A DNA stretch of 63,849 nt, filler included, from Reclinomonas americana ATCC 50394 (GCA_048213135.1; 3 parts of 2 records of this genome joined end to end with filler, not necessarily neighbours in it); one strand, 5' to 3'; shown: positions 1-62,200, counted from the first letter of the whole stretch. The notes: a model not told the origin generated them from the sequence alone. Program-made: numbers and translations.

Positions 1-3000
1 CCGGGCTTCGACCTGCCAGCCTCGTACAAGGACTCGACGAACAAGACGCCGCTGATCTTCGTGCTCAGTGCCGGTGCCGATCCGCTGGCTGATCTCTTTG
101 TGTTTGCCGATGAGATGAGGTTCTCCAAGAAACTCGACATGATCAGTCTGGGCCAGGATCAGGGCCCCATTGCCGAGCGCATGATCCAGGCCGCCGTGGA
201 GAACGGCACGTGGGTGCTGCTGCAGAACTGTCACTTGGCCGTGTCGTGGATGCCCGCACTCGAACGCATCTGCGAGGGCCTGGAGGATGGCAGTATTCAC
301 CCGAACTTCCGTCTGTGGCTCACGTCCATGCCGTCGGATAAGGTCAGAAAGGGGAAAGGAGGACAGGGGAGAGGGGAAAGGGGAAAGGGNNNNNNNNNNN
401 NNNNNNNNNNNNNNNNNNNNNNNNNNNNNNNNNNNNNNNNNNNNNNNNNNNNNNNNNNNNNNNNNNNNNNNNNNNNNNNNNNNNNNNNNNNNNNNNNNNN
501 NNNNNNNNNNNNNNNNNNNNNNNNNNNNNNNNNNNNNNNNNNNNNNNNNNNNNNNNNNNNNNNNNNNNNNNNNNNNNNNNNNNNNNNNNNNNNNNNNNNN
601 NNNNNNNNNNNNNNNNNNNNNNNNNNNNNNNNNNNNNNNNNNNNNNNNNNNNNNNNNNNNNNNNNNNNNNNNNNNNNNNNNNNNNNNNNNNNNNNNNNNN
701 NNNNNNNNNNNNNNNNNNNNNNNNNNNNNNNNNNNNNNNNNNNNNNNNNNNNNNNNNNNNNNNNNNNNNNNNNNNNNNNNNNNNNNNNNNNNNNNNNNNN
801 NNNNNNNNNNNNNNNNNNNNNNNNNNNNNNNNNNNNNNNNNNNNNNNNNNNNNNNNNNNNNNNNNNNNNNNNNNNNNNNNNNNNNNNNNNNNNNNNNNNN
901 NNNNNNNNNNNNNNNNNNNNNNNNNNNNNNNNNNNNNNNNNNNNNNNNNNNNNNNNNNNNNNNNNNNNNNNNNNNNNNNNNNNNNNNNNNNNNNNNNNNN
1001 NNNNNNNNNNNNNNNNNNNNNNNNNNNNNNNNNNNNNNNNNNNNNNNNNNNNNNNNNNNNNNNNNNNNNNNNNNNNNNNNNNNNNNNNNNNNNNNNNNNN
1101 NNNNNNNNNNNNNNNNNNNNNNNNNNNNNNNNNNGGACAGGGGAGAGGGGAAAGGGGAAAGGAGGACAGATTGTGTGATGAGACGACTGTTGGTTGTCTG
1201 TGTGGTGTCGTGTGCGTGCACTCCCGCTGTGGATGTTCCTGTGCATGTGCGTGTCTGTGTGTGCGTGTCTGCGTGTTTGTGACTCTTGATCTCTCTTGCT
1301 CTCTTCCTCTCTCAGTTCAGGTATCCCGTGTGTATGCGTGCTACATGCCTGGCTGGTTGTTTTTCTCTATCTCATTCTTATTGTTCTTGCTGCTCCATTC
1401 ACGTATTTGTTCCGGTCAACGTGCCTCACTCAATGTTGTATCGTGTTCACGTACGCTTTTGCCTCACCCCCGCCCTCTTGTGCTCTCCTACAGTTCCCGG
1501 TCAGTGTGCTGCAGAATGGCGTCAAGATGACCAACGAGCCGCCCAAGGGCCTGCGTGCCAATGTGCGCTCCACGTACCAGCGCTTCACCGACAAGTTCAT
1601 GGAGCACTCGAAGATGTCGCAGCTGAAGCGTGTGCTGCTCGGCTTTGCACTCTTCCATGCCGTCATTCAAGAGCGCCGCAAGTACGGCCCACTTGGCTGG
1701 TGCGTAGAATGTTGGCGGTGGAGAGGAAGAATGAGACGGTCGTCACTCACTCGCCAATCGTGCAGGAACATTCGCTACGAATTCACCACTGGTGACATGC
1801 TCTGCGGTGTGAGCCAGCTGCGTCTGCTGTTGGACCAGTACGAGGAGCCGCCATACAAGGTCATCAAGACCCTCGTCGGTCACATCAACTATGGTGGTCG
1901 TGTGACAGACGACTGGGATCGCCGCGCGCTGATGACGCTGCTCGACGGTGTGTAATGCCACTCGTCCCCCCATTTGCATGCCTCGCATCGACTTACCATT
2001 CTGTGGCTGTGCAGACTTTGTCGGCGCGAAGCAGCTGGAGCTCGGTTACCAGTACACCCCGGTGCCAGAGTACTATGTGATTGAGAAGGAGACACAGCGC
2101 GAGTATCTCGACTGGATCCAGGAGCTGCCGATCAAGGCTGGTACGTGACGGGGACAGCGATGTGGTGCAATGCATTGGTTGTGTAGATTACGGTGCTCAA
2201 CCTCCACACACAGACCCGCAAGTGTTTGGTCTGCATGAGAATGCCGATATCACTTGTGCGCAGGCCGAGTCGTACGGCATGCTGGAAACGATTCTCTCAC
2301 TGCAAGCACGGTTCGTGTGTGTGTGCGCCTGCATAGTGTGTGTTGCCAAAGGCACTCACCTGTTTCCGTCTCCTTCGCCTCCACAGTGTGGCCACCAGCG
2401 GTGGACGCACACGCGAGGATGTGATTGGTGAGACCGCCAAGGAGATCCTCGACCGCCTACCGCCTGCATTCGACATTGAAATGGTGGCGGCCAAGTACCC
2501 GACGACGTACACGGAAAGCATGAACACTGTGTTGTTGCAGGAGGTGTGTGTCGCCAGCTGTTTGTGTTGACATGCATGTGTGTGTGAGTTACTCACTGTT
2601 CCCCTCGCGCCACACGCACACAGGCCATTCGTTACAACCGACTGATTATCATCATGAAGAAGACGCTGCCGGAGCTGCTCAAGGCTCTGAAGGGTCTGGT
2701 GGTCATGAGCGAGCAGCTGGAGAAGATTGCCAGCGGCATCTTTATCAACCGCGTTGCGTCTCCAGGGTCATTGCATTCTTCTCCAAGTCGTCATTTGCAC
2801 TCACTGCTGTCTGTGCGTTTATGCAGGTGCCTGTGGCTTGGGCGGAGAAGGCGTATCCGTCACTCATGCCTCTCGCCTCGTGGTACGAGGATTTGTTGAA
2901 GCGTCTGCAATTCATTCAGGTGCGCCGACCGCAGCTTGTGGCTGACATCGAGGTCAAAGGTTACTGACTGACTGTATTCTTGTTTGTGGCAGTCGTGGTA

Positions 3001-3063
3001 TGACCATGGTNNNNNNNNNNNNNNNNNNNNNNNNNNNNNNNNTCCTCCTCCTCCTCTCTCCTC

Positions 3064-3119
<56 letters not shown>

Positions 3120-4036: not shown

Positions 4037-5779
4037 TTACAGTGGCGTCAGGTATCCATTCGACTTGTTGAGGATGGTGAGCTCCTCCACAAAGTCTTCG
4101 GCGCGCAACTCACCGTGCGCCATGAGGTCCAAGATCTCCTCCGTGGTGAACCACGAGGCTTGCAACGAGTCCAAATCGGCCTGAGAAGGAACACGTCAGC
4201 TCATGGGTGCAATCACCAGTGTATGCAACCAGCTGCGTCACTCCACCTCTTCAATGGTCTTCAGTGTGCCGCCAGTCAACCTAGTGCAGCACAAAGCAGT
4301 GTCAGAAAAAGAAGCAGTCCAGGAGGCAAGGGGAAACAGACTCACTTGCCCGTCACCGCAATCCGCAGCCAGTCTTGATCACCTGCGCGCGCTACATTGG
4401 TGAGCACAACTCAGACACTCTGACGCCCTCACCACACATTCATGCGCACCACTGTAGTGGGTGACCTTGACAATGTGCGTCGGCTTCAGGTCCATGCCGG
4501 CCTCGGCTTTGCAACATCTGATCGCCGCGTCGGGGAACGTCTCGCCCACGTTGACTTGCGCGGCCGGAGCGTACCATCTGGGGTTCACGGGGATCGTGAG
4601 GGGAAGGGGGATGGAGGGAGAGGGAGAGGGAGAGGGAGGAGAGGGGTGAAGAGAGAGAAGGGAAGGGACAGAAGCATGCAAGCAGAGTGAAGAGCCAGCA
4701 GAGAAGGAGGAAGGGAGAGAAGGCACAGTGGCATGCGAGTAGTGCGGAAGAAGTCAGGAGATCATCACAGAGGGGGAAGAAAAAGGACAGAAGCATGCAA
4801 TCACAGAGGGAAAGAACCAGCACAGAACGACATAGGGAGAAGGAGAGGGGGGATGGGAGAGAAAAGGGAGCAGCGAACAACAGAGAGAGACAGCAGGGAC
4901 AGATGCAAGAAGAGAGGGGTGTGCCGGCAGAGAACAAGTTAAAGAGAGAGAGACAGAAGGAAAGGAAAAGGGAAGCATGCAAGCAGAGAAGGAGCGGAGC
5001 AGAGAACAAGTGAAGGAGAAGCAGACAGGAAGAGAAAGGAATTGTCAGAATTATGCAACCACGGCACAGAAGGGGAGAAGACGAGGAGAAGAAGGGAGAA
5101 ATAGTATCGAAGCATTATGGCAGACAGAGGGAAAAGCAAGCAGAGAACGAGTGAAGGAGAGGGAGATAGGAAGGGAATGGAAAAGGGACGAAGCATGCAA
5201 GAAGAGAGGGGTGTGCCGGCAGAGAACGAGTGAAGGAGAGGGAGATAGGAAGGGAATGGAAAAGGGACAGAAGCATGCAACCAGAGAAGGAGCGGGGCAG
5301 AGAACAAGTGAAGGAGAAGCAGACAGGAAGAGAAGGAAAATTGACAGAAGTATGCAACCAGAGAGAGCAACCAGCAAAAGAACGACACAGAACGGCACAG
5401 AACGGCACAGAAGGGGAGAAGAAGAGAAGAAGGATAGAAGCAAAAGCAGAGAGAGCCAGAATAGATCGACACAGAGAGGAAGGTGCAACAAAGAACGGGG
5501 AAAGCGACCGAAACATAAGCAGAGAACGACAGAGGAGAAGAAGATGCGAGAAAGAAACCAACAAGCAGGCATGCGACAGGCACACCGCTGACGTAACTTG
5601 CCACGCGACGACTCCTACGATGCGCATATGTGTCCAGGAAAAAGCACGGAGAGACAAAGATTCGATGTTGGTGGACAGGGGAACACACACAGACGCAGGA
5701 ACACGCACACACCTTGGACTCTTGAATGAGGAGCATGCGTCCTTCATCGTCCTTGATGATGCACGACACGATCAGGCGT
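4037..5779 (-). CDS. NUDT18-like Nudix-fold protein with degenerate Nudix box (5' exons uncertain, possibly to ~6400)
   Basis: Spliced product RLIVSCIIKDDEGRMLLIQESK/ESSRGK/WYAPAAQVNVGETFPDAAIRCCKAEAGM...WLRIAVTGK/LTGGTLKTIEE/ADLDSLQASWF resembles NUDT18 (LLIQEAK...WYLPAG...TGGILKT...ADAESLQAAW); TAA at 4037-4039. Confidence 0.8.
4600..5575. repeat. Purine-rich degenerate intronic repeat array
   Basis: Recurring GACAGAAGCATGCAA and duplicated blocks such as AAGAAGAGAGGGGTGTGCCGGCAGAGAAC inside the Nudix intron. Confidence 0.8.
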
Positions 5780-6520
5780 CTGCACGCACACGCAGTCAGG
5801 TTGTCATGAGTGACAGGAATGATTGGGGCGACGACGGATTCGGCAACCCGCCGCCTTGTTGCCCATCATCAATGCGGTCGCCTCGCGCAAAGAGAATCGC
5901 ATCCACGAGCGCATCACACACACATACATACACACACGAGGAGGACACGAGCACAGGAAAAGGGAGGAGGAGGAGGGAGAGGGAGAGGGAGAGAAGAGTG
6001 TATCACGAACACACAAAGGCAAAAGAGAAACGCAACACTCGATGCATGGTGTGTTGGAAAAACTGGGAGGGAGCCGGCTGAGCGAGCGAGAGAGAGCGAG
6101 AGTGTGTGAGTGGCGCAGACAGCGAAGAGAGAGAGAGCACACAGGGCGTGTCCGCGCTGTGTTTTGTGTGTGTGTGCGCGCCGAGTGACAGTGTGCGCAA
6201 CTTTGGAGAGAACACTGGTGCGAGAGTCTACGAGCGCGGAAGGTGTTGAACGGGTGGTGCGCGATGAGAGAAAGCAACGAGAGCAGAGCAACGAGTGCGC
6301 ACAAGACTGAGCGATTGATTGATTGATTGGTGCGTTCGAAGTCTCGGACCCGGACGCCTTGCGAAGGCAGCGCAGTGCTTATCCCTGCGCCACAGTGCAA
6401 ATGCATCTAACGAAGCTTCACCCCGAATAATGTCCACATCTCCATTCTCTGTACACTCATTTTTCTACGTTTTTTCAACCTTGTTGCATTGCAAGTCGGG
6501 GCGCATCTTCTCGTCCTCGT

Positions 6521-7249
6521 TTACACCGCAACGACCTGCGTTCCGTGGCCCACGCTGCTCTTCAGCACCTTGCGCAGGTTGGCAAGCAGCTGCGGGAATT
6601 TCGGGGAAATGAGCACGCGCGCAGAGGGTGTTATCAAAATGAAGAGGCACTTGTCACGACGCAACGTTGTAGTGGAAGTCAAAGTACTCCTCAAAGGTGA
6701 TCTTGCCGTCGTGGTTGGCGTCCAGCTCGCTGTGGATGGCCAAGCGTTAGTGTGTGAGTGAGAGACAGAGAGAACACAGAGAGAGGAGAGAAAAGAACGC
6801 ACGAAAAGTGCTTGTTGACGTGCTCCTCCTGATCCGGCGTCAGCGCGCTGGCGCTGCTCTGCTTGGTCCAGTAGTTGGCAAAGAGGCGACGCTGTGACAC
6901 ACAACACGTACGTGGTGGCGTGTGAGAGACGTCACAGTCAACACACACTGATTGTTGTCGCGCGCACAACGCACCAGCTCGGAGATGTCAAGCGTCTGGT
7001 TGCGGTCGGCGTCGATGAGGTCGAACTCCATGCGGCAGTCGCTCTTCAGGCGCTGTTTTGTGCGGTGGGAGAGGTGAGAAGGGATGATGTGCGGCACGCG
7101 TCGTGGGGAGGAGGAGAAGAAAACGCAACGTCAACGTTGGTCAGCTGCTCGTCGAGCCATTGGATCTGTGGTGAGAGGTGAGGGGGTGAGAGAGAGGAAG
7201 GGTGGAGGGTGGGAGGGTGGGAGGGAGACGAAACGTAAGCGTCAGACAT
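6521..7249 (-). CDS. Small two-EF-hand calcium-binding protein (6 exons)
   Basis: MSDAY/IQWLDEQLTN/RLKSDCRMEFDLIDADRNQTLDISEL/.../ELDANHDGKITFEEYF.../LLANLRKVLKSSVGHGTQVVAV*; two canonical EF loops. Confidence 0.85.
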
Positions 7250-7324
7250 GTTTTTCTTCTCTCGCAAGACAGTTATCGAACGGCGGTTTCAATGTGTCGG
7301 CCGGTTTTGGAGGAAATCGCGGGT

Positions 7325-8821: not shown

Positions 8822-9183
8822 CGCAATCGAAACAAACTCAAACTGGTGGAATTTCACAATCCGCACGCCTGGATCGATCCGGATAGCGCCTGCGCTATGC
8901 AGCTGTCACTTGCCAACACGTACACTTGTCACGAGCTTCCACGAAGATCACCAGCAAGTCTTATGTGCCCCATTTTCCAGAGAAACCGCCTTATGTAAAC
9001 ACACTGCCAGCAGGGAAAGCACTCGTCACCAGCAGCAGCGATCACCAATGGACACCTATCGTGGTGCATCAGGTGTTGATTGTACTCGTGAACAGGAAAC
9101 TGCACGCTGCGCTGCGACGCCATTCTGATGTGCCACCATCTACAGAAACGGAAGCGATAGACCGACGTCATCACTTCCCTTGC

Positions 9184-9805: not shown

Positions 9806-9861
<56 letters not shown>

Positions 9862-10212: not shown

Positions 10213-10262
<50 letters not shown>

Positions 10263-12612
10263 AATAAAAGGAGAGTGAGCGATTGCAGTGATTGCAGCGA
10301 CGAGAGGAAGACAGAAGAAGGAGAAGGAGGATCATTGGGCACATCAATGATCGCAGTGAGTGACCAGATTGCAGTGCGAGAGAAGAGAGAGAGAGAGAAG
10401 AAGGAAGCGTGAGCGACAGTGAATGCAATGAGGGAGAGCCAGGGATACTGAGAAGAAGAGAGAGTGAGCGATTGCAGAGAGTGAGAGAGTGGGATTGCGA
10501 GAAGAAACAGAAGACGATTAGATGGGAGAGAGCGATTCCAGCGACAGCAGTGAGTGAGAGAGCGACAAGAAGAGAAGAAGAGAGTGAGTAATACAGTGAT
10601 CGCAGCGACTGGAGTGACTGCAGAGAGAGTGAGATGCATGCAGAAGTAAGAGTGCGGTTGCAGCGAATCACAGTGTGCAGCGTTTGAGAGAGAGAGAGAG
10701 AGTGTTAGAGTGTGAGAGAGCGAGGTGGCGATTGAGAAAGTGAGGGAGTGAGTGAGTGTTCTTGTGCATTCTGGTAACATCCGTGACGTATGCAGAGCAC
10801 TTGGTGTTGGACTGGACGTGCGAGCCATCGGTGGCATGCTACGAGTGCACACCAGTGGCGATAGTTCTGCATGGGATCACAGGGCACTCGGAGCAGCCGA
10901 CGTTGCGTCTCGCCGTCTCTCTTCGTCTCTTGGAAAGTGCGTGGTTGTGACGCCTTTCGTCTGCTGCTGGCAGGATGCAATGCCTGGCGACGTCGCTGGC
11001 CTCGGTCGGGTTCCGTGCGGTGATCTTCAATCGCCGTGGCTGCCATCATGAGGCGCCGTTGCAGAAGCCGGTGACGTATGCGTATGGCGACTTTGTGGTG
11101 CGTCGGGCGACCAGGGAGTCAAAGAGATGGATGCAAGGGAGGGGCAGCGCATCGGCGTATCTCTCATTCTCTGCCTTGCTGTTTCTTCGTCTTTCGCATC
11201 TCTCTCTCTCTCTCTCTTGTCACTCATCGAGACACCATCGTCTTGTTTTGGTGCCCCCTCTCTCACATTCCATCCTTCTGTTTGTTGCGTGTTATTACTC
11301 CCCTTTCGCGTGCACATTGATCTCTTACACCCTCTCTGCATTCATTCAGGTCTCGCTCTCTTGCCCCTTTCTTTCTCTCTCGTGTATTCTTGTGGAGTCG
11401 CTCTCCACTATTGTTTATTGCGAGTTCTTTATATCCTTCTGCACCGCGTCATCCTCACTCACTCTGATTCTGTATCCTCCTGCTACTCTTCCTCACCTTC
11501 CTTGACCTCCGTACTCTCCCTGACCGAATGTTGTATCCCTTGGCTTCTTTCTTGCTCACCGACTCGTCTTGTCCTTGTTCTTCTCTTGATTCGCCCCTTC
11601 CCTTCCCTCTCCTCTCCCTCCCCCCTTCCTCATCATTCCGCTCTGCACGCCCCACAGGACATGGACTGCGTCGTGGAGCACGTGCACGACCGCTTCCCCA
11701 AGGCACCGATTGTGGCCATTGGTGTGTCGTGCGGAGCCAACATTCTCGTGAATTTCATGGGTGCCGCTGGCGAGGTGAGCGGGAGTGTATGCAATGCGAG
11801 CATGTGGGACGGGCACTGACACACACACACACACGCACACTCGATGCAGCATTGCCGCTTAAGTGCAGGCATCTCGGTCTCCAATGGCTTCCGCATTCGC
11901 GAAGGTGTTGGCCAGCTGCCGTGGGTCTACGACATGCTGTTGGCACAAATGTGCAAGGGCTTCTTTGTGGAGCGACACATGCATCATTTTGAGCAGCACC
12001 CGAAGGTCAACCTCGATACCGTTCGTCGTGTGCGCTCCGCACGCGAGTTTGATGTGAGCTGGAGGGTGGATTGTTCGGGGATGTAGGATGGCAAGCCGGG
12101 TTTCTACATGTTCAGTGTCGATGCTTACGACTTTGTTGACGGAGTTCTCTTTGTCTGGCTCTCTGTGCTCGCTCTCTGCTCGCTCGTCTCTCACTCTCTC
12201 TACTCGCTCGTCTCTCACTCTCTCTGCTCGCTCGTCTCTCACTCTCTCTGCTCGCTCGTCTCTCACTCTCTCTGCTCGCTCGTCTCTCACTCTCTCTGCT
12301 CGCTCGTCTCTCACTCTCTCTGCTCGCTCGTCTCTCACTCTCTCTGCTCGCTCGTCTCTCACTCTCTCTGCTCGCTCGTTTCACTCTCTGCTCGCTCGTC
12401 TCTCACTCTTTGCTCGCTCGTTTCACTCTTTGCTCGCTCGTTTCACTCTCTGCTCGCTCGTTTCTCACTCTCTGCTCGCTCGTTTCTCACTCTCTGCTCG
12501 CTCGTTTCACTCTCTACTCGCTCGTTTCACATTCTCTACTCGCTCGTTTCACACTCTCTACTCGCTCGTCTCTCACTCTCTACTCGCTCGTTTCACTCTC
12601 TCTGCCGCTCAT

Positions 12613-12650: not shown

Positions 12651-13104
12651 NNNNNNNNNNNNNNNNNNNNCGTTTCCTCTCACATGCTCACCCTCACATC
12701 GTTGCAGTTTTACGACGCCCAGAGCTCGGCGGCCTTTTTGAGTTTCGTGAATCTCCCAAAACTTAAGCCTCCCTCGCCCACTCTTCTCACTTCCTTGCCC
12801 CTACCAACAGACCGCGTGGCCAGACCACTCCTCATCCTCAACGCTCGTGACGACCCGCTCATCGACCCCAAGCTGTTGCCGATTGATGAGCACCAAGCGA
12901 ATCCCAATCTCATCTTTGCTGTCACCGAGTGGTGAGCCTGTGTGACTCGCAGTGGTGCTGTGGAGGAGAGAGGAGTTGCTGACATACCACCACCGCCTGC
13001 GCAGTGGTGGACACGTGGGCTACCTGCAGGGTTTCAATAACGCGCGAACATATGTCGACCGTGTGGCTGGCGAGTTTTTCCACGCCGTATTGCAGTGCAC
13101 ATGA
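9184..13104 (+). CDS. ABHD1/2/3 (YheT-like) alpha/beta hydrolase
   Basis: N-terminal hydrophobic anchor, FYPTPWATNGHLQ, LHGITG, FNRRGC, nucleophile GVSCG, NARDDP, GGHVGY; one exon probably lost in the 12651-12670 gap. Confidence 0.9.
12168..12600. repeat. Intronic 24-bp minisatellite (TCTCTGCTCGCTCGTCTCTCACTC)n, decaying to shorter units
   Basis: Visible tandem copies; gives the spurious RVRDERAE ORF. Confidence 0.9.
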
Positions 13105-15135: not shown

Positions 15136-15237
15136 TCTCGTCTTCTCTCGCCCAACCCTCCAAATTCACAGTTTGATTGGTCGGATCACACAACGTTCTT
15201 GTCTTTGTGTGTGTGTGTGTGTGAGAGAGCGCGCGCG

Positions 15238-18200: not shown

Positions 18201-19160
18201 GGATCGACACAGGTGAGCGAGGCATAATTGTCCTCTTCATGATCTTGCCAGCAAAACCCTTACCCTGATCGCAGGTCACGGATGTCAACGAGTTGGTGGC
18301 CTCGTGTCCGCGACTGCGCATGATTGATGTGTCGTCGTCTGGCGTGACCAGTGTCGACGTTTCACGAGCCCGACAGAATGTGCGCGTACGAGGAGTGCTG
18401 CGCCGCGAGTGGGGTCGCGAGACGTCGAGCTACGATGCCACGTTGACGCCGACGGCGCGCGCCGAGTACCAGCGTTTGCGCGAAATCGGCTGCAGCGAGG
18501 AGGCCATTACGAGACGAGTGTGGGAACGACCACAGCACGTCGAAGTCGGCGACTGGCTCGCCGCCAACGTGGCGTTCTTCTTTGAGCGCTGCATCTTGCT
18601 GTTTCAGTCGGTGTCGGCTCACTGCCGTGACGACACGTGCCTGCAGATGATGGGCAGTGTGCAGTTTCGTCGATTTTGTGTTTCTATCTCTCTTGCCATC
18701 TGTGTTTGTAACGCATGTGTCTGTCTTTCTCTCCCTCTCTCCAGCCACGAGTACTTGTGGAGCGACGGCAAGAATGTGAAGCGTCCAGTGCGCATGTCGG
18801 CGCCGGCCTACATCAACTCGCTCTTCACGTGGATCAACAATCAGCTGTGCGATCAGCGCGTGTTTGGCAACTACGAGAAGAAGCGTTTCTACGATGCGGT
18901 CAAGTACATTTTCCGCCGCATGCTGCGCGTGCTGGCGCACATTAACTTTGTGCACATGCAACATCTCGACTTGATACAGTTGCGTGGCGTGTGCTTTTCT
19001 CCCTCTCGTCGGTGCAGGGTCTGATCCTGTGAGCAGGAAGCGACGAGAGTTCCTCTACACGCTGCAGCACTTTGTGCAGCTGTGTGAGCGCTACAAGTTG
19101 ATTTCGGATCGCGCCGACTACGACCCGGTACTGGTGCTCGTGCAGCAGTGGCTCTCGTAG
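15238..19160 (+). CDS. F-box + leucine-rich repeat + C-terminal MOB1/phocein domain protein
   Basis: F-box LPPELVSHMLSFL...VCREW; about 10 LRRs (e.g. LHFVDLAHTSINNVAAL); MOB motifs DWLAANVAFFF, HEYLWSDG, MSAPAYI, IFRRMLRVLAHINFVH; TAG 19158-19160. Start codon tentative. Confidence 0.85.
16438..16872 (-). CDS. LRR exon of the F-box/LRR/MOB gene on a mis-oriented contig
   Basis: GNPNAEKLISLEPLRLARNLRELSVGHTAVADLAPLEMCTALRKLNIS...; flanked by TAG acceptor and GTCTGT donor on the minus strand; contig end overlaps the upstream (GTT)n. Confidence 0.85.
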
Positions 19161-19573: not shown

Positions 19574-20459
19574 TCACACTTCCGCGATGAAGTTGCGTAT
19601 CCGCTCCAGCAGCTCCTGCTTCACTTCCTCAGGCACCGACGCTGTGGGGGGGAGAATGGGGGAATGTGAGAAGGGGGTAAAGTGGGAAGGGGGGAAAAGG
19701 GGAAAGGCTGAGGTGCTGTTCGTGGAGGAGTTTATCAAACAATATAGCGAGCGTGCAACATTGACTAATCTTCGGGTCTTCTCTCGTGCCCTCTGCGTGC
19801 GGCGTTTCTCTTCATGGCTGACAAGCAAGAGCACTCGGCCGTCCTCTTGTTGACGAGGAACAGGCTGCGACATCGACTTCTCTCGTTCAAATCACCTCTC
19901 TCGCGCTCTCCATCTCTCTCTCTCTNNNNNNNNNNNNNNNNNNNNGGCTCATCTCAATCTCCTCTCAAGCACACGCCCCTGTCACTCCAGCGCGCTCTCC
20001 CTCCTCCCAACTCCCTTCTCTCTCTCTCTCTCTCTTACAGAGTCGGCACGCAACATCGTCCAAACGGCGTGATCTCCGACACCAAATCATCCACCGTCGT
20101 CGCCTCCAATCCCTTCGACTTGATCACCTCTGCACACACGCACACACACATCAACACACTCACTCACACTCTCTCACACACACACAAAAATCAAAAACAA
20201 AACGCAACGTTTGCAATGCTGCTTCAAACTGTCTCTCCATCCACTCTCCCGCAAGCGAACCTCCAGCAGCTCCTTCAACCTACACACACACACGCGCACG
20301 TGAGATCAAAGTGACTTTCAACTCACACTTGCTCTCACTTTTCTCTCCACTCTCTCTCACATTCACTCACCGATCAAGCTCGCCAGTCTCCGCAAGCTTC
20401 TCATAGATCGTTTGCCGCACTTGCTGCTCTCGTTGTTTGCGCTCTCCCAGTGTGTCCAT
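19574..20459 (-). CDS. ENY2: Transcription and mRNA export factor ENY2/Sus1 (4 exons)
   Basis: [100 protein letters not shown]. Confidence 0.92.
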
Positions 20460-21580: not shown

Positions 21581-22576
21581 ATGGCTGAGACGGCGGCGGC
21601 AGCGGCTGCGGCTGCGGCTGCGGCAGTCGACTCGCTGCTCCCGCCACTGGACGCGCCACAGTGGGTGCCCGACAGCGCCGTCATCCACTGCCATGCCTGT
21701 CACCGCGAGTTCACCTTTTTCCGACGCAAGGTCTGCACACACTCTCTCGCACGCACACACACAGCAGATAGAGACAAGCGCGCACACGATGCACTGAGAA
21801 GAAAGGCAGAGCGGGTGGAGTTTGTGATGGTCATCTCTCATCACTCACTCACACGCGCAGCACCACTGTCGCCGCTGTGGCATGATCTTCTGCGGCGACT
21901 GCACGCCACATCGTCTGGTGATCCCGCGTCTTGTCGGCACCGGGTGCGATGTGGCACCGGTGCGCACGTGTGACACATGTCGACGTCGATGTGAGGAGGA
22001 GGAGGTGCTCGAGTCGCAGCATCTGCTCTTCTTGGCCGAGGGCGGCAAGTTGGAGTTGGAGGTGTCGCATGGCTATGTGCCGGCCATGAGAAAGGTGGGG
22101 TTCATGGATGGGCGTGAGTTTGCAGAGAGAGCTGACTGACTTAGCAATGATAGGTGTATGCGCGTGTCGACTCGTACATGTGCTTGATGTGGACGTCGAA
22201 CCATGGGAGTGGAGGCAGTCGCGAGTCGCGAGTGCCACTCAACGAAGTCCGCAGTGTGATTGCGGAGGAGAGTGGTTGCGTTGATTCCGGATCTTCAATG
22301 CATTATTTGCCTCTGTGTATTCAAATACTTTCGTGCATAGATCGCGAGTTTGTGGTCAACACAATGGGTGGTGAGCGGTTCCACTTCCGTGCCAATTCGG
22401 TCGATGATGCAGCGCGGTGGGTGTCGGCGTTGCAGTCGGTCTCCAAGTATCTGCGCACGGAGAAGCAGCAAAAGGAGCAGCAGTTGCTGAAGCAGCAGCA
22501 GCAGCAGCACTCGGTAGATGATCGGGCCACACATGGTGTGGATGGGGAGGCGACGAGCGATGGTGGGCTCAGATAG
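21581..22576 (+). CDS. FYVE zinc finger + PH-like domain protein
   Basis: WVPD...CHAC...FTFFRRK/HHCRRCGMIFCGDC...VRTCDTC; C-terminal RFHFRANSVDDAARWVSALQ PH helix. Confidence 0.9.
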
Positions 22577-37178: not shown

Positions 37179-37185
37179 GCCTCAT

Positions 37186-40100: not shown

Positions 40101-43100
40101 GAACAGCTGCAAGCTGAATAGATATCACATACAAACCTTCACATGCACAAGTTTCTGAATCACAAAGCGAATAATGGCCTCCAGCTTCTCGGCCTGCGAG
40201 CAGCACGCCCGTCAGCAACAAAAAGCGAGATGATTTCATACACAGCAAAACTTGCACATGCCTTTCGTGTGAACTTGGTGCGTTCCGCAGCCATGAAGCC
40301 ATTCTCCGTCATGAGTGCCTGTCGTTGCGCCGTCGCCGCCTCCAAGGCCTGCTCCAGGATGCGCACCTCCTCCGTCGACTCGTTCAACTTGGTGGTGCAC
40401 CTGGTGAGCGCCGCCTTGGCATCCTCTGCAGCAGGTTGTGAGCAAACAGAGTCACCACGCACATGTATACATGTGAGGCGCAGTACGCACCACACTCTCC
40501 CTTCACGTGAGCGAGTTTCTCCTCGGCGTGGCGCAGCTTGAGGGAGACATCCTCGAAGGGCTTGGAGAAGCGCTCAGATGCCTCCTGAATGAGACGCTGG
40601 ATGCGCTCATTGCTCTCTCGCTGCACGTTGACCAGACGCTCTTCGTACTCCGACACCACTTTGGTCTCGCGTTGTGCCACTTCGCGCTCCACACGCTCGC
40701 TCTGCGACTGCACCTCGGCCGTCGCCTTGTCGAGTCGGTGCAGCAGATTGGCGCGGGACTCATTCAGGGTAGTGCACCGCAGCTCGGTCTCCTCCAGCTG
40801 CTGGAGAATCTCTTCCGCCTGTCGCAGAGTCTCACTGGCAGCCTCGGGTAGTGACTGTGTGTCGCGATAAGAATCAACACCAACGTGTGAATGCGCAACT
40901 ACGGCGACACGAACCATCTCCGATGGCGGTCGGCTGTACGTCTCGGCCACGTCACCGGACTCCAGTGGCGAGCGTCGAAGAGCTTTGCGCCGTCGTGTGT
41001 CGAGTCGCACCAAAAAGCGCTCCATACTCTTGCGTGCACTGCGAAAAGTACGTGCGTGAGTACTTTAGCGACGAACAGAGGGAGATGTCTGGCGACGCAC
41101 CTTTCTGTGTCTGCACTCAACACCTCCACTTGCGACTTCAAGCCACCGACACCTGAGTGGATAAACGAATGAGAAATACGCGGCGAGCAGACAACAGAGA
41201 ACGACAGTATCTTTCGCACCAGTGGTGACGGCAAATTTCTCATGCTTCAGTTCCTCGACGGTCAGCGCCAGCGACGCGAGCTGTCGCTCCTGTTGCACTA
41301 GCTGCTCGCGTGCTTCACGCAGTTCCTTGTTGAGCTCCTCGTTCTCCAGTGACTTGGCCTCGCGCACGGTGACGAGCTTGGCAATCCGATCCTTGCAGCG
41401 CGCCACCTCCTCGTTGAGGAAGACGACACGCTCTTCCATTGCAGCCTTTTCACTGTGTGGAGGAGAAAGGGGGTGTGAGGTGCGTCAGCATGCTGGTGAT
41501 GCTCGACTGGCCACGCAACACAGCGAGTGCCTGCATGGCGGTGTCCTTGNNNNNNNNNNNNNNNNNNNNGATTTGGAGGCGTTGCGTCTCTGTCCTCCTG
41601 GCGCGCTCCGTGGTGCGTTCGTCTCACTCTGGTGAGTGCAGGTTGGTGAAGCAAAGTGAGGACGCGCGACACGAGACAGAGCGAGTGCATGCTGCGCTCG
41701 TCGACGAGCAAACGCAGCGATCGCACAACGTGTCGGAGGATCAGACCGCCTTGCGTGAGCAGCTGTCGGATGCCAACCGGCGACTCAAGGTAACGACTGC
41801 ACGAGTGCTCCACCTCATAGGTGCACACATTTCGCTGATTTCATGTCTCGGCACGCGGTAGGAAATGGAGATCTCGCACAACTCGGTGGCGCAGCAGTTG
41901 GAGAGTGTTCGCGCGGAACGATCACACCTCGTGCAGCTGGTGGACTCGCTGAACAACGAGATCGGTACTCTCACTGGCCGGGTGGAGGCCCTTCGATCGC
42001 AGAACATCCATCGCGAGGCACAGCTCGTGGACGAACGCAATGTTGCGTCGTCCTGTGTCTCTGTTGCGTGCGCGAGTGAGAAGTGTGCTCACGTCTTTCG
42101 TCGCACAGCGCCTGAGTGACAAGGTCACATTATTCGAGCACGACCGATCACAGCAGCTGGCTGTNNNNNNNNNNNNNNNNNNNNNNNNNNNNNNNNNNNN
42201 NNNNNNNNNNNNNNNNNNNNNNNNNNNNNNNNNNNNNNNNNNNNNNNNNNNNNNNNNNNNNNNNNNNNNNNNNNNNNNNNNNNNNNNNNNNNNNNNNNNN
42301 NNNNNNNNNNNNNNNNNNNNNNNNNNNNNNNNNNNNNNNNNNNNNNNNNNNNNNNNNNNNNNNNNNNNNNNNNNNNNNNNNNNNNNNNNNNNNNNNNNNN
42401 NNNNNNNNNNNNNNNNNNNNNNNNNNNNNNNNNNNNNNNNNNNNNNNNNNNNNNNNNNNNNNNNNNNNNNNNNNNNNNNNNNNNNNNNNNNNNNNNNNNN
42501 NNNNNNNNNNNNNNNNNNNNNNNNNNNNNNNNNNNNNNNNNNNNNNNNNNNNNNNNNNNNNNNNNNNNNNNNNNNNNNNNNNNNNNNNNNNNNNNNNNNN
42601 NNNNNNNNNNNNNNNNNNNNNNNNNNNNNNNNNNNNNNNNNNNNNNNNNNNNNNNNNNNNNNNNNNNNNNNNNNNNNNNNNNNNNNNNNNNTTGCACACG
42701 GCGGCCGAGCAAATCACGTTCATCCGACAGCTCGCGGATCCTCCGCTGCGCCGCGTCCGACTCGTTGACGATGCGCACCTCCAACTTGTTCTTGTCATTG
42801 GTGACAGCCGTCAGCAGCTGCAACGCGGGAGTGAGTGAGTGAGGCCACACAGACGAGACGAGCGAGTTGTTGCGCGACACCCACCGCCTTTTGCACTTCC
42901 AAATCACTGGCCAGTTTCGTCTTCTCGACGTGCAGCGCACGGCCCTCGCTGACGCACTGCTCGAGCGACGATTGCACCTTCTCCAGCTGCTGCTGCAACA
43001 CTCCCTTCTCGGTCTCCAGCAATTTCACCTGTCGTCGCAGTCGATTGTCGTGTTCCTACGATGCGCCACTATGCTTGAGTGCCAGACCAGTGCAGGGCGC

Positions 43101-44451
43101 GGCAAAGGCGCTCTCACCTTGACTGCGTCGAGTTCCTGTCGCAACTGCGACTTTTCGTGCGTCTTGCTGTCCTGGTCACTCGACAGGAGCTCGAACTGCA
43201 GGCGATATCGCTCCAGATCTGCATGGAGTAAATCAATCAGCAGAGTTTGTCGAGCACAGGCGACTTCTTTTTTCACAACGCACCGAGAGACATGGAGTCC
43301 CGCAGCGATCGCTCGCGGCTCAGCTCCAACGACAACTCCTTCACGCGTGTCGACAATTCCTCGCAGTCGAGTCGCGAGCTGCCAGCAAATGGCACGTCAG
43401 AAGATGCACACACGCACGCATGTGTGCTCGGCAAGAGGCGCGCAACTGTTCATGCTTGTGCAGCAAATCATGGAGACGCCGCTGCAGTTTTTCTCGGCTG
43501 TTCAGCACCGCATGCAGCGTCTTGCGAATGTCGTGTTGCGAGGACTGTGCACACGACGACAGCGTCAGTGCGTGTACGCGAACGAGAACGAGGATTACTC
43601 TCGTGTTGCACACGAACATCGTCCTTGTGGAGGCCGGCGGCCGCCATGAGCGCCGCCACTGCGTTGCTGCCCGGTGACCCGTCCGGCGTCACCGAGCGAC
43701 TGCTGAACGCACTGCCGGCCAGCGACGACGCCGCCGTAAAGGTACCGGCAGTCACCGCCGAGTTCACCTCCTCCAGTCGCGCTCGAATGCTCGTCAGCTC
43801 CTGCTCCATGTCGGCATTGTGCTGCTGAAACAAGAGGTTCTGCTCGCTCAAATCCGCCACTTGTCGCTCCTTGTCCGCGCACGCCTCGATGAATCGCACA
43901 AACGAGTACCACGTCGACAGCGACGATGCACTCAGTCGTTCCTGCGCGAGTGCGTGGGGATGTTGAGAGTCATCCCCAGTGATCTTTGAGTGACAGAGTG
44001 AGACAGACCTTGATTTCAGAGGGCAGATCGGCCGAGAGTGCATGTGGATAGGCGCCCTGTGTGACCGCCTGCTCACTGACACTCCCAATGGCATCGATCA
44101 GGGCTTGCAGTGGCTGAGTACACACAGAGAGGGTGAGCGAGCGCGCGAGTGTGAGCGAGCACACTGGTGAGCGGGCCCACCTGCAAGTGCTGCTCAATGT
44201 CGGTCTTGTGTCGCGCCTCAGCGAGCTCCAACTGTGTCTGGAGCATGCGCGTCGACTTTTCAAACTCCAGGTTGTCACTGTGTGTGCGTGTGCGTGTGTA
44301 AGTGGAGAGAGGACGAGAGAGGCGGGATCTTGTATCTCTCTCACACACGCGCGCGTTCTCTTTTGTCTCTTTTGTGACACACTCACTGTTCAAGTGCGCT
44401 GATCAGGCGATCCTTTTCTGCCAGCACTCGTTGAACATCGCTGGTCTCCAT
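37186..44451 (-). CDS. Very large multi-exon coiled-coil protein (exons at 41570-42164 on a flipped contig; may be more than one gene)
   Basis: Starts METSDVQRVLAEKDRLISALE; many heptad-rich E/Q/L/R exons; flipped contig joins in frame at both ends (GRRVQ-DLEAL; QQLAV-KDTAM). Confidence 0.7.
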
Positions 44452-44539: not shown

Positions 44540-46521
44540 CTATTCAGTGATCCAGGACGGCTTGGTGCAGCGCGCTGGCGTGGTCATGGTGGCCTCGTAC
44601 ACGCAGCGACTCGGCTCCTCGAACGTCAAAATCTTGTTCTCGTTGCCGCACGTGAAGTTGAGCTGTGTGTCACAGGAACAGTATGAGCGATATTCTGGAG
44701 GAGTGGGTGGGAGTGGGCATGTGCTGTGGCAATGCTAACCTTGAGAGAGCGTGGCGGTCCTTGCCAGCACTGCTCGCCAAACTCAAAAACGCCGTACTCG
44801 AGATCCATGTTGCCCCAGCGCATCCAGCGGCTGCATGGGCGAGTGAGTTTTTGCGTGCAGCGAGCGAGTCAGCATGAACGGAGCATACACACCCGAGCCG
44901 CGTGGTGGAGCCGGAGCCCTTGGAGATTTGCTTGGCTTCCGCGAACGGGCACACCTCGTACGTGTACCTGATTGACTGGTTGTCAGCATCGACGTGATGG
45001 GATGGGGTATAGGACGGGGTAACAACGCAACTCGCGAGTGTCGTACTTGAAGCACTTCTCCCACAGGCCAAAGTACTCGAAGCTCTCGCCCATCGGCTTG
45101 CTCATGAACTCGCCGACCTCGTTCATCTTCTGCGTCCAGCCAAACACCTTTTCGCCCAACTTGTCCTTTTCCTCCTTCAGCTTCTCCAGCTCTGCACAAA
45201 ATGACAAAGTGTCAGACCAAGTCGCGAGAATGGGATAATGATTCTCTCTCTCCCATTTGCGCTACTGCTATGCAATCCGATAATTCACACTCGTGCACCT
45301 GACCGCCCCCACACCCTGTCCCAGAGACGACGCACGGAGCCCACAACAAGAGTGTCGTACCCGAGGGCGCGATCAACACGCTCGCGCAACGACGACACTC
45401 GCCCTCCTTCCTCCACCACTTTTTGCTTCTGCTCCTCTTCGGGGGCAGCAGTGGAAGGAGCAGGAGGCGAAGAGGGCGGAGGAGTGGAAGGAGCAGGAGG
45501 CGAAGAGGGCGGAGGAGTAGGAGTCACTCGCCCTCCTTCCTCCACCACTTCTTGCTTCTCCTCCTCTTCGGGAGCAGCAATGGAAGGAGCATGAGGTGAA
45601 GAGGGCGGAGGAGTAGAAGTCACTCGTCCTCCTTCCTCCACCACTTCTTGCTTCTCCTCATCTTCGGGGGCAATGGAAGGAGCAGAAGGCGAAGGTGGAG
45701 GAGCAGGAGTTGAATCTTTTCTTCTCCTCCTCTCCCTCTTGCTCCCACTCCTCCTCCGCCTCCTCATCGTGCCCTTTGTACGTGCTCTCGTATCCCCATC
45801 ACTCCTCTTCACCGACGCCATTTCGGCATCGGTGCTCGTCTTGCCGTGCGCAGGTGCTTGCAAGCGCGTGCATCAACAGGCGGTGCGAAGAGAAAGAGGA
45901 AAGAGGGAGAGAGAGAGAAAAGAGGCCCGAGTCGGCAACACGACAATACAAACACAAGCACCACCACCCAACAAGACTCACCACCCTCCAGTTCCTCGCG
46001 ACGCTCCATGACACCCCTGTTTCGTACAAGAGAGACGGCACGTTCAGAGAGCTGTTCACAATAAAACGAAACAATAACAGGAATGGCCAACGCAACTCAT
46101 CGTCCACGTCGGTCGGCAGATCGTCCAGCTCCTCCTCGTACTCGGCAATGAGCTCTGCAGCCAGCAACAACACGCGGAGTTACAACTGGAAACAGTAGAA
46201 CAAAGACGCGACTCTGTGGCGCAACTCTCGACCTCGCCCTTGCGCGTCTCGGCCGCCTGCTGCTCGGTGCGGAACCGCTGCTGCCACTCGACCTTTTCGG
46301 CATAGTACGCCGCGCCCTCCTTCATGTACTTGACCTTGATGCGCCAGCCCTGCAGGCAGATCGTGCACTCAGTCACCGGAGAGGGAAAGAGAGAGGGAGA
46401 GAGAGAGAGAGAAAGAGCGATAGAGGGGGAGAGAGAGAGAACGGCGGAGGAAGAGAATGAGAGAGAGAAAGGAGCGATTGAGAGAGAGAATGAGAGCGAT
46501 TGAAGCAAGAAAGAGACAGAC

Positions 46522-47733: not shown

Positions 47734-48140
47734 GTGACATGCATGCACGTAAGAATGATGACGCAACTCATCATTGACTGCCCATCCGGGGATTGTCGCC
47801 TTGGCATCCAGACACACAAACATCTCCGAGGCATCAGCGTACTCTTCGCGCTCTGCACATGAGAGAGAGAGAGTGAGAAGAACGAACTTGCACACAACAT
47901 GTCACACGCAGACTCTCTCTCTTGTGCAGCAGAGCACGAGGGAGGATGCATGCACGACACACACTCTCTCTATGTGCTCTCTTTCTCTGTGTGTTGTGTG
48001 TGCGCGCAACGTTCGGGGGGAACGCCACGTGTCCGTCGTGCCACGTCCTCATCCTTCTTCTTTGCAGCGGCCACGGTGACCACCAGCAGTGCCAGCAGCA
48101 GCACTGCCATAAGAAGAGTCACGTGCACTGTGCGCGTCAT
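44540..48140 (-). CDS. Glucosidase II beta subunit-like (PRKCSH family, MRH domain)
   Basis: Signal peptide, RGVPP, FVCLD...VND, acidic/Pro repeat exon, CFKYDTREYTYEVCPF...Q, RLG.W, GEQCWQGPPRS, EPSRCVY...TPARC; middle exons in a gap. Confidence 0.85.
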
Positions 48141-49503: not shown

Positions 49504-49599
<96 letters not shown>

Positions 49600-49873
49600 A
49601 ACTCGAACGAGTTCCGGAAGCGATGGGAAGCCCTCGAGTGACTTGAGTTTGCACACGTTCAACTCGAGCACTTGCAGCTTGTTGGCCAGCTCCTCGCCCA
49701 AGTCAGCCACCGCAGGCACGCGTGGCAACTGAGTGCAAGAGTGAGTGAGAGACAGTGAGCGTGTGTGTGTGTGAGAGAGTGTGCACCTTCTTGTCGAGGA
49801 TGCACAAGGCGGTGCCGGTGTCGTCGGAGTACATGGCGAGTGCCTCGCGAACAACATCGCTCAAGTCGCCCAT
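48642..49873 (-). CDS. ANP32: ANP32-family acidic leucine-rich nuclear phosphoprotein
   Basis: LQVLELNVCKLKSLEGFPSLPEL LRR, D/E-rich tail, terminal NLS ETKRQKK*; centre lies in a gap. Confidence 0.82.
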
Positions 49874-59147: not shown

Positions 59148-59267
59148 GGGGTGGAGATGGAGGAGGAGGAGGAGGAGGACTAGTTTTAAATGCGTGCATG
59201 AATTAAGAAAGATGGTCAGCTGCTATTCATTAGGGGCCGAGTTTCTGGAAAGGGCGACGGCCGGGCG

Positions 59268-62200
59268 TTATTTCCGCGTGCCGCCTCGTCGTTCCTCTTG
59301 TGCGTCGAGTCGTTCCCACATGTCGGCGTACTCGTACAGAATGTGCGAGGCCATGGTTCTTGCTTTTTCGTCCTCGTGCCGACCCTGTGGGGCGAGTGAG
59401 CGAAAGGAAGGGAGGAGCGGCGAGAAGAGAACGCACCTCGGACAGCATGAACAGGTACTGATAAATGTCACGCCAGCGGTAGCCGTCGTCTTTGAAGCAT
59501 GTGTTGGACATCCACGACTTGAGCGCGCACACGTAGTTCACTCGCAGCTGTGCGAAACATCATTGGTGAGCAGGCGAGGACACGAGGGAGAGAGGGGAGA
59601 GGAGAGGCAAGAGAGAACGAGTGGTCATGGTGAGCGAGGGAGATGAGAGATGTGGGGTGACGCACCCTGTCGTTCTCGGGCAAATCGTGCAGCTGGCGGA
59701 GGATAATGTCGAGCATCAGGTGCACGTCCTCCGAGGAGAACAGGTCGTCGCAGTAGCCTTTTTCCAGCGCGCCGAGCAGAAAGATCAGACTCATGCGGGC
59801 CGACAAGAGGGCTGTCGGCAAGGAGGATGAGTGTGATGCGTGCGGATGGAAGGAGAGGGGGCTGTGCGCACACGCAACTGGAGTGGTTGAAGAGCGACAA
59901 GAAGGTAGAGCCGATCTTGCGGCCGTTGATGTGTGTTCTCAGCACCTCCAGCACGCCGTCGCGGATTTGTGCGTGGAGGTGGATCTGCACAAGAGGGGGA
60001 AGGGAGGGGAGAAGGGGGAGAAGAAGGGGGAGGAGAAGGGGGAGGAGAAGGGGGAGGAGAAGGGGGAGGAGAAGGGGGAGGAGAAGGAAGAGGGTGAGAT
60101 ATTGCTGTAACATGACGTGGTAATGTGCATAAACTCTCGTTGTCTCATTCTTCGGTCTCGTATCTGCTGCATTGCTGCGTGTCTCACGGTGCAGGCGACA
60201 TACGCAGGTCCGCCATGTGCCTAACTCGTCGTCACACTCTTGGTTCATGGTCTGCAGCACTGCTCATTGGTCTCATGTTGCTAGGCACAAACACGGGGAG
60301 CGGAATGTGCGCATAAACTCTTCGTCTCATTCGATTCATGGTCTGTGGCTTTGACACAAATACGCACTCTGCACGTCAGCTCGCGTCTCACATGCTCTGT
60401 GTGCTGCCTGCACACAACTTCTCACTCGTGGAGAGCGAGATGAAAAACACTGCCTCTCAGAACTCCGCGGTATGCCCTGCAAACGAGACACCCACAACCT
60501 CCACTCGCATGCCGCAATGTACATCGTCTCTCTCAAGCCAGCTGCAGTCTACTTCAACCTATGGTCTCACTCGTCTATCGGCCACCAGCGATACATTACA
60601 CACGCCTCGCTCGTCTCTCTCGCGATCGAGTCCTGCAACGCAGGAAAGCTCATCTTCGTCGTACGCGAACAGACTCAGTTTCACACGTACCATGCTAAAC
60701 CAGCGCTATACTGCAATCTTCTTCTCTGCCTCGCTCGTGTCAACTGAACGGTGCCCTCCCGGCTCAGTTTCACACGTCTCGCTCGTCGATAGCATGCTCT
60801 ACAAGCGAAGCCCCAGCGCATTCTGCTTCGTCGCACTTGCGTGTCTATCGCTCACTGCCATCTCATCTCCAGAACCTACTCACCAAACAACACGTGGCCG
60901 CATCCACCGTGGCATCACTATGTGTATCCCGATCACACATGTCGAAGAGCACCGTCACAAACTCGCGAGAAAACACCTCTGCACGTTCAATGAGTGACAC
61001 ACACTCACGCTCTCGCAATCAATCTCCGCACCAAGCTCATCCTCCTCCATCTGCACCTCCACCGACAGCACATCCATCAACAACGCCATGTACAACAGCT
61101 GCAGATCCACATCACCGGCTACACACACAGTGCGTCAACACGAGCACAGAGAGAGACTCTCACTCTCCTCTCGCCACTCACCTTGCCTCTCCAACAACAC
61201 AATCTGCTCCACCACATACGTGATGAGCGGATGACACGCATTCAGAAAGTCCAGTGCGTCACTGCGCAGCTGGCCCAGGCCAATCAGCGACTGCAACAGC
61301 AGTGTTGTTTCGTGTTTGGTATTCTCATCCTAATCATCGAGTCATCAATCGTCATCAGTCAATGCACGCGTGTGTGTGTGTGTGTGAGTAATAAGAGAGT
61401 GAGCGTACTTCTGTGAGGTACTCCACGAGTCGCATGGTGAGAAAGAAGTCCTCGGCACACATCGCCTCCAGCTTGGTGTCGTTCTTCTCACACACTGGAG
61501 AGAGATGACATGAGTGACGCAAACACGCAGTGTCTTTCAGTGTGTGGCACACAACTTGTGTACAGGTCAATGAGCTTGTTGAGCTTGCCTTCGAGATCAT
61601 CACGTTCACTCAGGCCAATGGAGAGCGCAGAGTGCACCATCTTCTATCTCTCTCTTTCTCCGCGAATGATTGTCAGTCGCTGCTGTCCTGCGAGAGGCCG
61701 GCCGTCGTCGCTTGTACAGTGTGGTGCTTGTGTGTCATCTCCAGTGCAGCACGTAGCCCGTGTGCAGAATGTTGTATTGCGACAGTGACTTGGCGTAGTC
61801 GACCGGTTCACCGCAGTAGTGCCTGTGTCGAGGAGTGAGAAGGAGAATGAGGAGGAGGAGGAGGAGGAGGAGGAGGAGGAGGAGGAGGAGGAGGAGGAGG
61901 AGGAGGAGGAGGAGGAGGAGGAGGAGGAGGAGGAGGAGGAGGAGGAGGAGGAGGAGGAGAGAGAGAGAGAGCGAGAGACGAAGAGACGAGACGAGNNNNN
62001 NNNNNNNNNNNNNNNNNNNNNNNNNNNNNNNNNNNNNNNNNNNNNNNNNNNNNNNNNNNNNNNNNNNNNNNNNNNNNNNNNNNNNNNNNNNNNNNNNNNN
62101 NNNNNNNNNNNNNNNNNNNNNNNNNNNNNNNNNNNNNNNNNNNNNNNNNNNNNNNNNNNNNNNNNNNNNNNNNNNNNNNNNNNNNNNNNNNNNNNNNNNN

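Follow-up and report, generated by a model that had tools for sequence, protein, structure and literature searches.

We analysed a 63,849-nucleotide (nt) stretch of Reclinomonas americana ATCC 50394 DNA (GCA_048213135.1; three parts of two records joined end to end with filler), hereafter the window, in which introns beginning GTTGCG had been noticed. At the level of DNA and protein homology, on which all evidence below rests, the analysis confirms that these 5' splice sites (donors) form a real and abundant class, with a consensus displaced one base into the intron, a measurable frequency and a close tie to the last exon base (-1). The cell probably has an altered reader for this second kind of intron start, since standard U1 small nuclear RNA (snRNA) should barely bind GTTGCG(T). 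With about even confidence, we propose that a variant U1 marks the displaced donors one base out of register, that U6 follows, and that the cut is made at the GU.

Displaced donors are frequent and follow a non-G exon base

The preliminary description had listed 15 GTTGCG donors and five GTTTCG or GTTACG variants. All 20 motifs lie where they were placed (the variants at 7234 and 5597 on the minus strand and at 12742, 18664 and 58914 on the plus strand), and a non-G exon base precedes 14 of the 15 GTTGCG sites, 22275 being the exception. GTTGCG is common in the window (75 copies on both strands, where a second-order model predicts 47), and its mere occurrence is therefore weak evidence. Donor use was therefore assessed with a gene model giving any GT the same donor score (the flat model), built to avoid circularity, and with a motif-informed model derived from an unsupervised two-component mixture fit in which no register was assumed. 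From both models 130 donors were picked by eye by a curator aware of the motif. The curated set excludes the gene at 7300-9100, the reversed piece at 16430-16895, a single GC donor and sites judged uncertain, such as 28286, 28430, 55382 and 63102. Below, class A denotes donors with G at +5 and class B denotes GTT..G donors.

The flat model used 136 of the 3438 sense-strand GT sites as donors. It selected H/GTTNCG (H, any base but G; the slash marks the cut) at 18 of 64 occurrences (Fisher P 1.4e-11) and G/GTTNCG at 0 of 10. For the undisplaced words the dependence on the exon base is the reverse, with 12/42 for G/GTGCG vs 1/99 for H/GTGCG, and 45/193 for G/GTNNG vs 16/914 for H/GTNNG. The components of the mixture fit were AAG/GTGCGT (0.67) and NNA/GTTGCGT (0.33).

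The curated donors comprise 88 of class A (80 after G), 36 of class B (35 after non-G) and 6 others (all after G). Class B thus makes up 28% of the curated set, with 18/136 in the flat model as a floor, and the donors outside it follow a non-G base in only 8 of 94 cases. The same division appears without class labels: the 43 donors after non-G carry T at +3 in 36 cases, G at +6 in 35 and G at +5 in 8, while the 87 donors after G carry G at +5 in 80 and at +6 in 9. Class B accounts for 35 of these 43 donors but for 1 of the 87. Of 27 occurrences of H/GTTGCGT, 22 are curated donors, compared with 2 of 31 for H/GTGCGT, the non-donor counts including intronic repeats and uncurated donors; H/GTVGCG (V, any base but T) is a donor at 0 of 50. 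The earlier claim of routine GTTGCG donors dependent on the -1 base is hence borne out within the window.

The flat model recovered 12 of the 20 sites first listed to the base; its yield was about one half in either class (47/88 curated class A donors and 18/36 curated class B donors). All 20 sites are in the curated set, which adds 16 further class B donors; the weakest of the 20 are 22275, 52616, 47767 and 49602. The intron at 22275, the sole class B case after G, is 66 nt long, in frame and free of stops, and A/GTGGTT at 22272 offers an in-frame alternative donor. As a control, 80 metagenomic kinesin loci were surveyed; only 12 donors were obtained, from 8 of them, and none is of class B, a number too small to bound the range of the class.

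T/GTTGAG at 41121 was picked by both models and rejected by eye for G/GTGCGT at 41100. Other possible GTTGCG or GTTTCG donors, in 5' untranslated regions or unknown genes, were left uncounted: 6201, 55382 and 63102 on the minus strand, and 11284, 15502, 28286 and 28430 on the plus strand. Both models also chose a probable GC donor, AAG/GCATGT, at 40261 (minus strand).

The cut falls before GTT

Given an AG acceptor, a cut before GTT is shown at the level of DNA and protein. Five class B junctions (2753, 20208, 20054, 58914 and 18664) are codon-exact by comparison with homologues. The axonemal dynein heavy chain spliced at 2753 aligns without gaps to homologues that are ~45-56% identical over the spliced stretch and spread over unrelated groups. 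C/GTTGCG is the best AG-ending junction by 7 bits against a profile of 51 of them, and Pfam positions 115 and 116 flank it. The EnY2 exons correspond to residues 29-51, 54-76 and 79-97 of human ENY2 (4dhx_B), leaving exactly one junction codon at both 20208 and 20054. In archease (58914), PF01951 positions 95 and 96 lie on either side of the junction, and in the MOB domain (18664) the PF03637 offsets agree across it, with one junction codon.

The exact base at these junctions depends on the AG requirement and not on homology alone, as protein homology without that requirement picks the exact base at no dynein junction, ordinary ones included. An AG was assigned for 34 of the 36 class B introns; the other two run into gaps. 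In the PDB, neither the two PRKCSH exons nor the Nudix exon used as queries had a match, and the last MOB exon matched unrelated entries only, which leaves 45031, 5597 and 18979 without an anchor in homologous proteins. A search for EnY2 and EF-hand copies derived from transcripts found none.

The codons split at EnY2 20208 and 20054 differ from the human residues (E52 and A77; codons beginning with G). We take both intron positions to be shared with the human gene. Together these points suggest that the EnY2 introns are old and that their donors were converted.

Class B mirrors class A one base further into the intron

The words at +3..+6 of class A (81 sites) include GCGT (18), GAGT (13), GTGT (7), ACGT (4) and TCGT (4), and those at +4..+7 of class B are GCGT (23), TCGT (5), GCGC (5), ACGT (1), GAGT (1) and GTGT (1). 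The displaced word therefore reproduces the class A word down to its minor variants (GCG, TCG, ACG, GAG and GTG), which supports the one-base displacement put forward in the preliminary description. Class B is the stricter of the two, with C at +5 in 34/36 donors vs C at class A +4 in 36/88 (P 8e-9), A at these positions in 1/36 vs 30/88, and T at +3 in every site.

Class B donors avoid G at -1 (1/36 vs 10.3 expected from codon position; P 6e-5, phases set by hand), and G/GT donors likewise avoid G at -2 (6/86 vs 17.0 expected, P 5e-4). A at -1 is found in 15 class B donors vs 8.3 expected overall (P 0.009). Phase 2 introns are enriched (17/36 vs 13/88 in class A).

In other respects the classes are alike. 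Median intron length is 69.5 nt in class B vs 68 nt in class A (P 0.27), a branch-like motif is found in 28/34 vs 67/77 introns at a distance of 18.5 vs 17 nt, and the acceptor is CAG in 32/34 vs 63/77. Since length, branch motif and acceptor agree, both classes are likely handled by the same spliceosome. Class B introns have GT...AG ends that join in frame, and a branch motif and YAG like those of other introns, as U2-type (major) introns do.

Three micro-exons of 15-17 coding bases (23612-23626, 5598-5614 and 7235-7249, all on the minus strand) are each closed by a class B donor.

Computed pairing and a proposed variant U1 in a shifted register

Pairing with the U1 5' arm was computed for the canonical sequence as printed in the available text of PMC4856993 and PMC9311317. 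For class A, pairing of the canonical arm in the usual register averages -6.7 kcal/mol. For class B the means are -0.1 in the usual register, -0.7 when shifted by one base (+1) and -0.4 kcal/mol when bulged, and the arm ranks class B below other GT sites (area under the curve, AUC, 0.33). Class B thus carries the G at +6 that a +1 displacement predicts, but the computation finds no stable +1 pairing to canonical U1. Shifted pairing of ordinary U1 as in mammals, the mechanism first suggested, is unlikely here because class B pairs at only -0.1 to -0.7 kcal/mol, weaker than other GT sites. Its fallback, a variant snRNA, fits the computed pairing better than ordinary U1; the snRNA gene itself is not seen in the window.

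Two candidate arms, ACGUAACUG and ACGCAACUG, pair with class B in the +1 register at -8.7 and -10.3 kcal/mol and separate it from other GT sites with AUC 0.97 and 0.93. On class A, arms with A at position 8 (A8 arms) reach only -2.4 to -3.5 kcal/mol.

For U6, the ACA was taken opposite +4..+6, following the available text of PMC11162779. It forms on average 0.14 Watson-Crick pairs with class B in the usual register and 1.89 at +1, and 1.84 and 0.25 respectively with class A, a contrast that is partly built into the class definition. This suggests that U6 shifts by one base too, or that a variant U6 exists.

The DNA and protein evidence shows two kinds of major-spliceosome donor that share one word, H-G-(G or T)-T-N-N-G-Y. 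Class A has it as G/GTNNG, with the cut behind the first G; class B has /GTTGCG(T) and is cut in front of that G because the GU lies there. In the proposed mechanism, a variant U1 with an arm close to ACG(U/C)AACUG (G and A at positions 5 and 8) would read class B by pairing with intron +1..+7, one base off the usual register, while a more ordinary U1 would serve class A. After hand-over, the U6 ACA would pair with +5..+7 rather than +4..+6, the path from the U6 helix to the active site would take up the one extra base, and the cut would be set at the GU by U5 loop 1 or Prp8. Class B would give strong donors where coding constraints leave no exon-end G.

Several points weigh against this mechanism. 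The pairing energies describe unmodified RNA free of proteins, the curation was made with knowledge of the motif, and the candidate arms were designed from the motif, so that their fit to class B is partly built in and amounts to a prediction rather than proof. A8 arms part class A from other GT sites poorly (AUC 0.57-0.59); since they also bind class A weakly, two U1 types must be assumed. In an exhaustive fit of all 65,536 arms, with one arm serving both classes in two registers, the A8 arms rank 181 and 106, and the C8 arms ACGUACCU and ACGCACCU rank 2 and 3. An Rfam scan of the window gave 0 hits, with no U1, U5 or U6 gene, and the U1 reader is thus predicted rather than seen. The predicted preference for A at -1 is weak among non-G sites (15/35 vs 11.0 expected, P 0.10). 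Class B is instead rich in A at -2 (15/36 vs 6.9 expected, P 0.001), which suits a contact anchored at the cut and not a shifted one.

Alternative readings of class B

A possible, if doubtful, reading is that a single U1 serves both classes. Its arm would be of the Mastigamoeba type (ACGUACCUG or ACGCACCUG), pairing with class A in the usual register and with class B at +1 across a U+2/C8 mismatch, like the rare mammalian sites. Such arms, with G at U1 position 5, take ranks 2 and 3 in the exhaustive fit with AUC ~0.94 for both classes, and pair at -8.1 kcal/mol with class A and at -4.6 kcal/mol with shifted class B. One gene would suffice, and the lean of class A towards C at +4 is accounted for. 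Yet this arm should favour a model H/GTGCGT (-8.3 kcal/mol) over H/GTTGCGT (-6.6), the opposite of the donor usage reported above (2/31 vs 22/27), and with free-register energies its AUC for class B is just 0.64-0.68.

We consider it unlikely that U1 is unremarkable or dispensable and that class B is selected at a later stage, through a variant U6 box or an altered tri-snRNP (small nuclear ribonucleoprotein), Prp8, U1C or Luc7 that accepts a displaced U6 helix. The near absence of usual-register U6 pairing in class B (0.14 pairs) and the -2 A enrichment, which suits U5 loop 1, are both in keeping with such a late choice. In the parts available, PMC11162779 indicates that the position of U1 need not fix the cut and gives STAT3 as a reported case of a -1 U6 register, and PMC11732430 ascribes two donor classes elsewhere to U5 versus U6 contacts. 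Against this, an ordinary U6 ACA does not account for the nearly invariant bases at +3 (T), +4 (G) and +5 (C), and a seven-base word better suits a U1-like arm.

A bulge register, with U1 pairing to +1 and +2 as usual and one U at +2 or +3 looped out, is very unlikely. Bulge registers are proven in human cells (PMC4856993, available text), and the -2 A enrichment in class B would fit one. But a bulged helix gains from the -1 G that class B avoids, is weaker than the shifted helix for all five arms computed, and would let other bases bulge, although +3 is always T and H/GTVGCG donors are absent.

Scarcely credible is a true cut one base later (G/TTGCG, a TT-starting intron in ordinary register) or a misplacement of the junctions. 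Introns starting with UU can splice in Caenorhabditis elegans according to the available text of PMC11098459. The junctions here rest on DNA and protein, not RNA, and 12 of 34 downstream exons begin with G, for which a joint slide of both ends yields the same mRNA. The later cut needs an AG one base out of frame; none exists within -11..+13 in 23/34 introns, and a YAG does in 3/34. The five junctions colinear with homologues have GT...AG ends.

Least probable of all is a transformed, expanded class of U12-type (minor spliceosome) introns, for which the strict seven-base donor word and the lack of a need for -1 G are general U12-type traits, but class B has neither the RTATCCTT-like donor word nor the CCTTRAY branch motif (0/34) of the U12-type consensus, and its branch motif, branch distance, length, acceptor and minor variants all match those of class A.

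Relation to known donor systems

The variant-U1 mechanism has partial parallels, compared here with the portions of the cited sources that were available. Human 5' splice sites read in a shifted (+1) register (Roca and Krainer 2009, via PMC4856993 and PMC11162779) likewise carry the consensus one base into the intron, G at +6 and a cut still at the GU. Unlike class B, which makes up 36/130 curated donors, all non-canonical registers together account for ~1.5% of human sites (PMC11162779). Human shifted sites pair with ordinary U1, which GUUGCGU hardly does. The strict dependence on a non-G last exon base further sets class B apart.

Co-evolved U1 arms are described for Entamoeba (AACAAAC with GUUUGU) and Mastigamoeba balamuthi (ACGUAC) (10.1101/2022.06.08.495308). 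As in these protists, the donor word here departs from GURAGU, implying a changed U1 arm, and places C opposite U1 position 5. They have, however, one donor type in the ordinary register (+5 G), whereas here two classes one base apart coexist.

The geometry that we predict can work: the C. elegans sup-39 U1, in which the nucleotide opposite +1G is changed, increases cutting at an overlapping -1 GU as much as at UU (PMC9723624, PMC11098459). In unc-73(e936)/sup-39, a G/UU word is thus read by a U1 altered at the +1-pairing base and cut at the overlapping -1 GU. That case is a laboratory mutant at one locus with mixed -1 and UU use; class B is a natural, genome-scale class whose reading frames are built on the GU cut.

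The split between U5- and U6-dependent donors (PMC11732430) resembles the present one in that the classes are divided by -1 G and the non-G class is stricter in the intron. There, both classes share one register (+5 G), whereas the non-G class here is displaced by one base; class A here, unlike its counterpart, keeps +5 G as well as -1 G. No published description of a GTTGCG donor class was found, including for Reclinomonas, jakobids and Andalucia godoyi, in a search of paper listings that covered few subscription papers and no bioRxiv supplements.

It is an open question how the spliceosome settles on the precise cleavage point once U1 has departed. By the working rule in the available text of PMC11162779, the G that pairs with U6 C48 lies five bases downstream of the cut. 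With that G six bases away in about a quarter of introns, class B is a natural experiment, on a large scale, for asking which of U1, U6, U5 and Prp8 determines the register. If true, the proposed mechanism would split a transcriptome between two U1 specificities, which would be a rare arrangement. The class also shows how donors can do without a G at the exon end, and gene-finding programs trained with only one donor matrix would be misled by it.

Gene context and further observations

Class B donors in the window. "New" marks sites beyond the 20 first listed; MI, motif-informed model; LRR, leucine-rich repeat.
Interval	Strand	Feature	Gene	Support and remarks
2753..2826	+	intron C/GTTGCGT, phase 0	axonemal dynein heavy chain	51 homologues, Pfam, flat model
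5591..5597	-	donor A/GTTACGT, phase 2	Nudix	curated; chosen by neither model; only downstream exon matched homologue
6030..6036	-	donor T/GTTGCGT	Nudix	new; MI, curated
6590..6665	-	intron C/GTTGCGT	EF-hand	flat model
7053..7129	-	intron C/GTTGCGT	EF-hand	new; MI, curated
7166..7234	-	intron C/GTTTCGT after 15-nt first coding exon	EF-hand	curated from sequence
10902..10973	+	intron C/GTTGCGT	alpha/beta hydrolase	open frames both sides, curated; missed by flat model
12742..12810	+	intron A/GTTTCGT	alpha/beta hydrolase	flat model
18664..18744	+	intron A/GTTTCGT	MOB domain	PF03637 colinear, flat model
18979..19036	+	intron A/GTTGCGT	MOB domain	MI, curated; downstream exon without MOB match
19642..20054	-	intron T/GTTGCGT, phase 1	EnY2	4dhx_B 54-76 / 79-97, flat model
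20130..20208	-	intron C/GTTGCGT, phase 1	EnY2	4dhx_B 29-51 / 54-76
22275..22340	+	probable intron G/GTTGCGT	FYVE-PH	flat model, MI; sole -1 G case
23540..23611	-	intron C/GTTGCGC after 15-nt exon	YhhN	MI, curated
25955..26032	+	intron T/GTTGCGT	YqaJ domain	new; MI, curated
29124..29208	+	intron C/GTTGCGT	unknown	new; MI, curated
29531..29589	+	intron T/GTTGCGT	unknown	new; flat model
37783..37845	-	intron A/GTTGAGT (displaced GTGAGT)		new; MI, curated
38158..38225	-	intron C/GTTTCGT		new; MI, curated
38577..38644	-	intron A/GTTGCGT		new; MI, curated
39307..39369	-	intron A/GTTGCGT		new; flat model
41453..41519	-	intron T/GTTGCGT		new; MI, curated
41581..41641	+	intron C/GTTGCGT		new; MI, curated; upstream exon cut by gap
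42042..42108	+	intron T/GTTGCGT		flat model
43379..43446	-	intron A/GTTGCGC		new; flat model
44968..45031	-	intron A/GTTGCGT	glucosidase II beta (PRKCSH)	flat model; downstream exon matches PF07915
46017..46096	-	intron A/GTTGCGT	PRKCSH	flat model
46155..46225	-	intron A/GTTGCGC	PRKCSH	new; flat model
47761..47767	-	donor A/GTTGCGT	PRKCSH	MI, curated; intron enters gap
47853..48010	-	intron C/GTTGCGC	PRKCSH	new; curated by eye; both models took 48028 instead
49596..49602	-	donor A/GTTGCGC	LRR	flat model; intron enters gap
52610..52616	-	donor T/GTTGCGT	coiled-coil	flat model; 729-nt intron, acceptor uncertain
57533..57602	-	intron T/GTTGCGT		new; flat model
58914..58972	+	intron T/GTTTCGT	archease	PF01951 95/96, flat model
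59812..59878	-	intron A/GTTGCGT	SPIN90-like	flat model
61495..61555	-	intron A/GTTGTGT (displaced GTGTGT)		new; flat model

The window is GC-rich eukaryotic DNA with a high density of short introns and contains 6,566 N. A Pfam scan of 191 of the 555 long open frames, chosen by apparent gene strand, identified genes for axonemal dynein heavy chain, Nudix, EF-hand, alpha/beta hydrolase, tRNA endonuclease, F-box/LRR/MOB, EnY2, FYVE-PH, YhhN, YqaJ, kinesin, PRKCSH, Tim10-family, archease and SPIN90-like proteins. This gene set points to a flagellate with mitochondria as the source.

Short contigs between N gaps at 3040-3710, 16430-16895 and 41560-42165 seem to be inserted in reverse, since they prolong the adjacent genes (dynein, LRR and coiled-coil) on the other strand; they appear to be assembly orientation errors. 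A TTAATTAATTAA linker within N runs at 27802-27813 and 56834-56845 is an assembly spacer and not biology.

At 15230-19160 (plus strand) one reading unit seems to combine an F-box, leucine-rich repeats and a MOB1/phocein domain, a putative fusion with gaps between its parts. A gene with introns at 24700-26970 (plus strand) carries a YqaJ-like viral recombinase domain (PF09588), and at 32730-37180 (plus strand) a Kinesin-8-like motor precedes a profilin-like domain (PF00235, E 6.5e-5), with gaps between the two.

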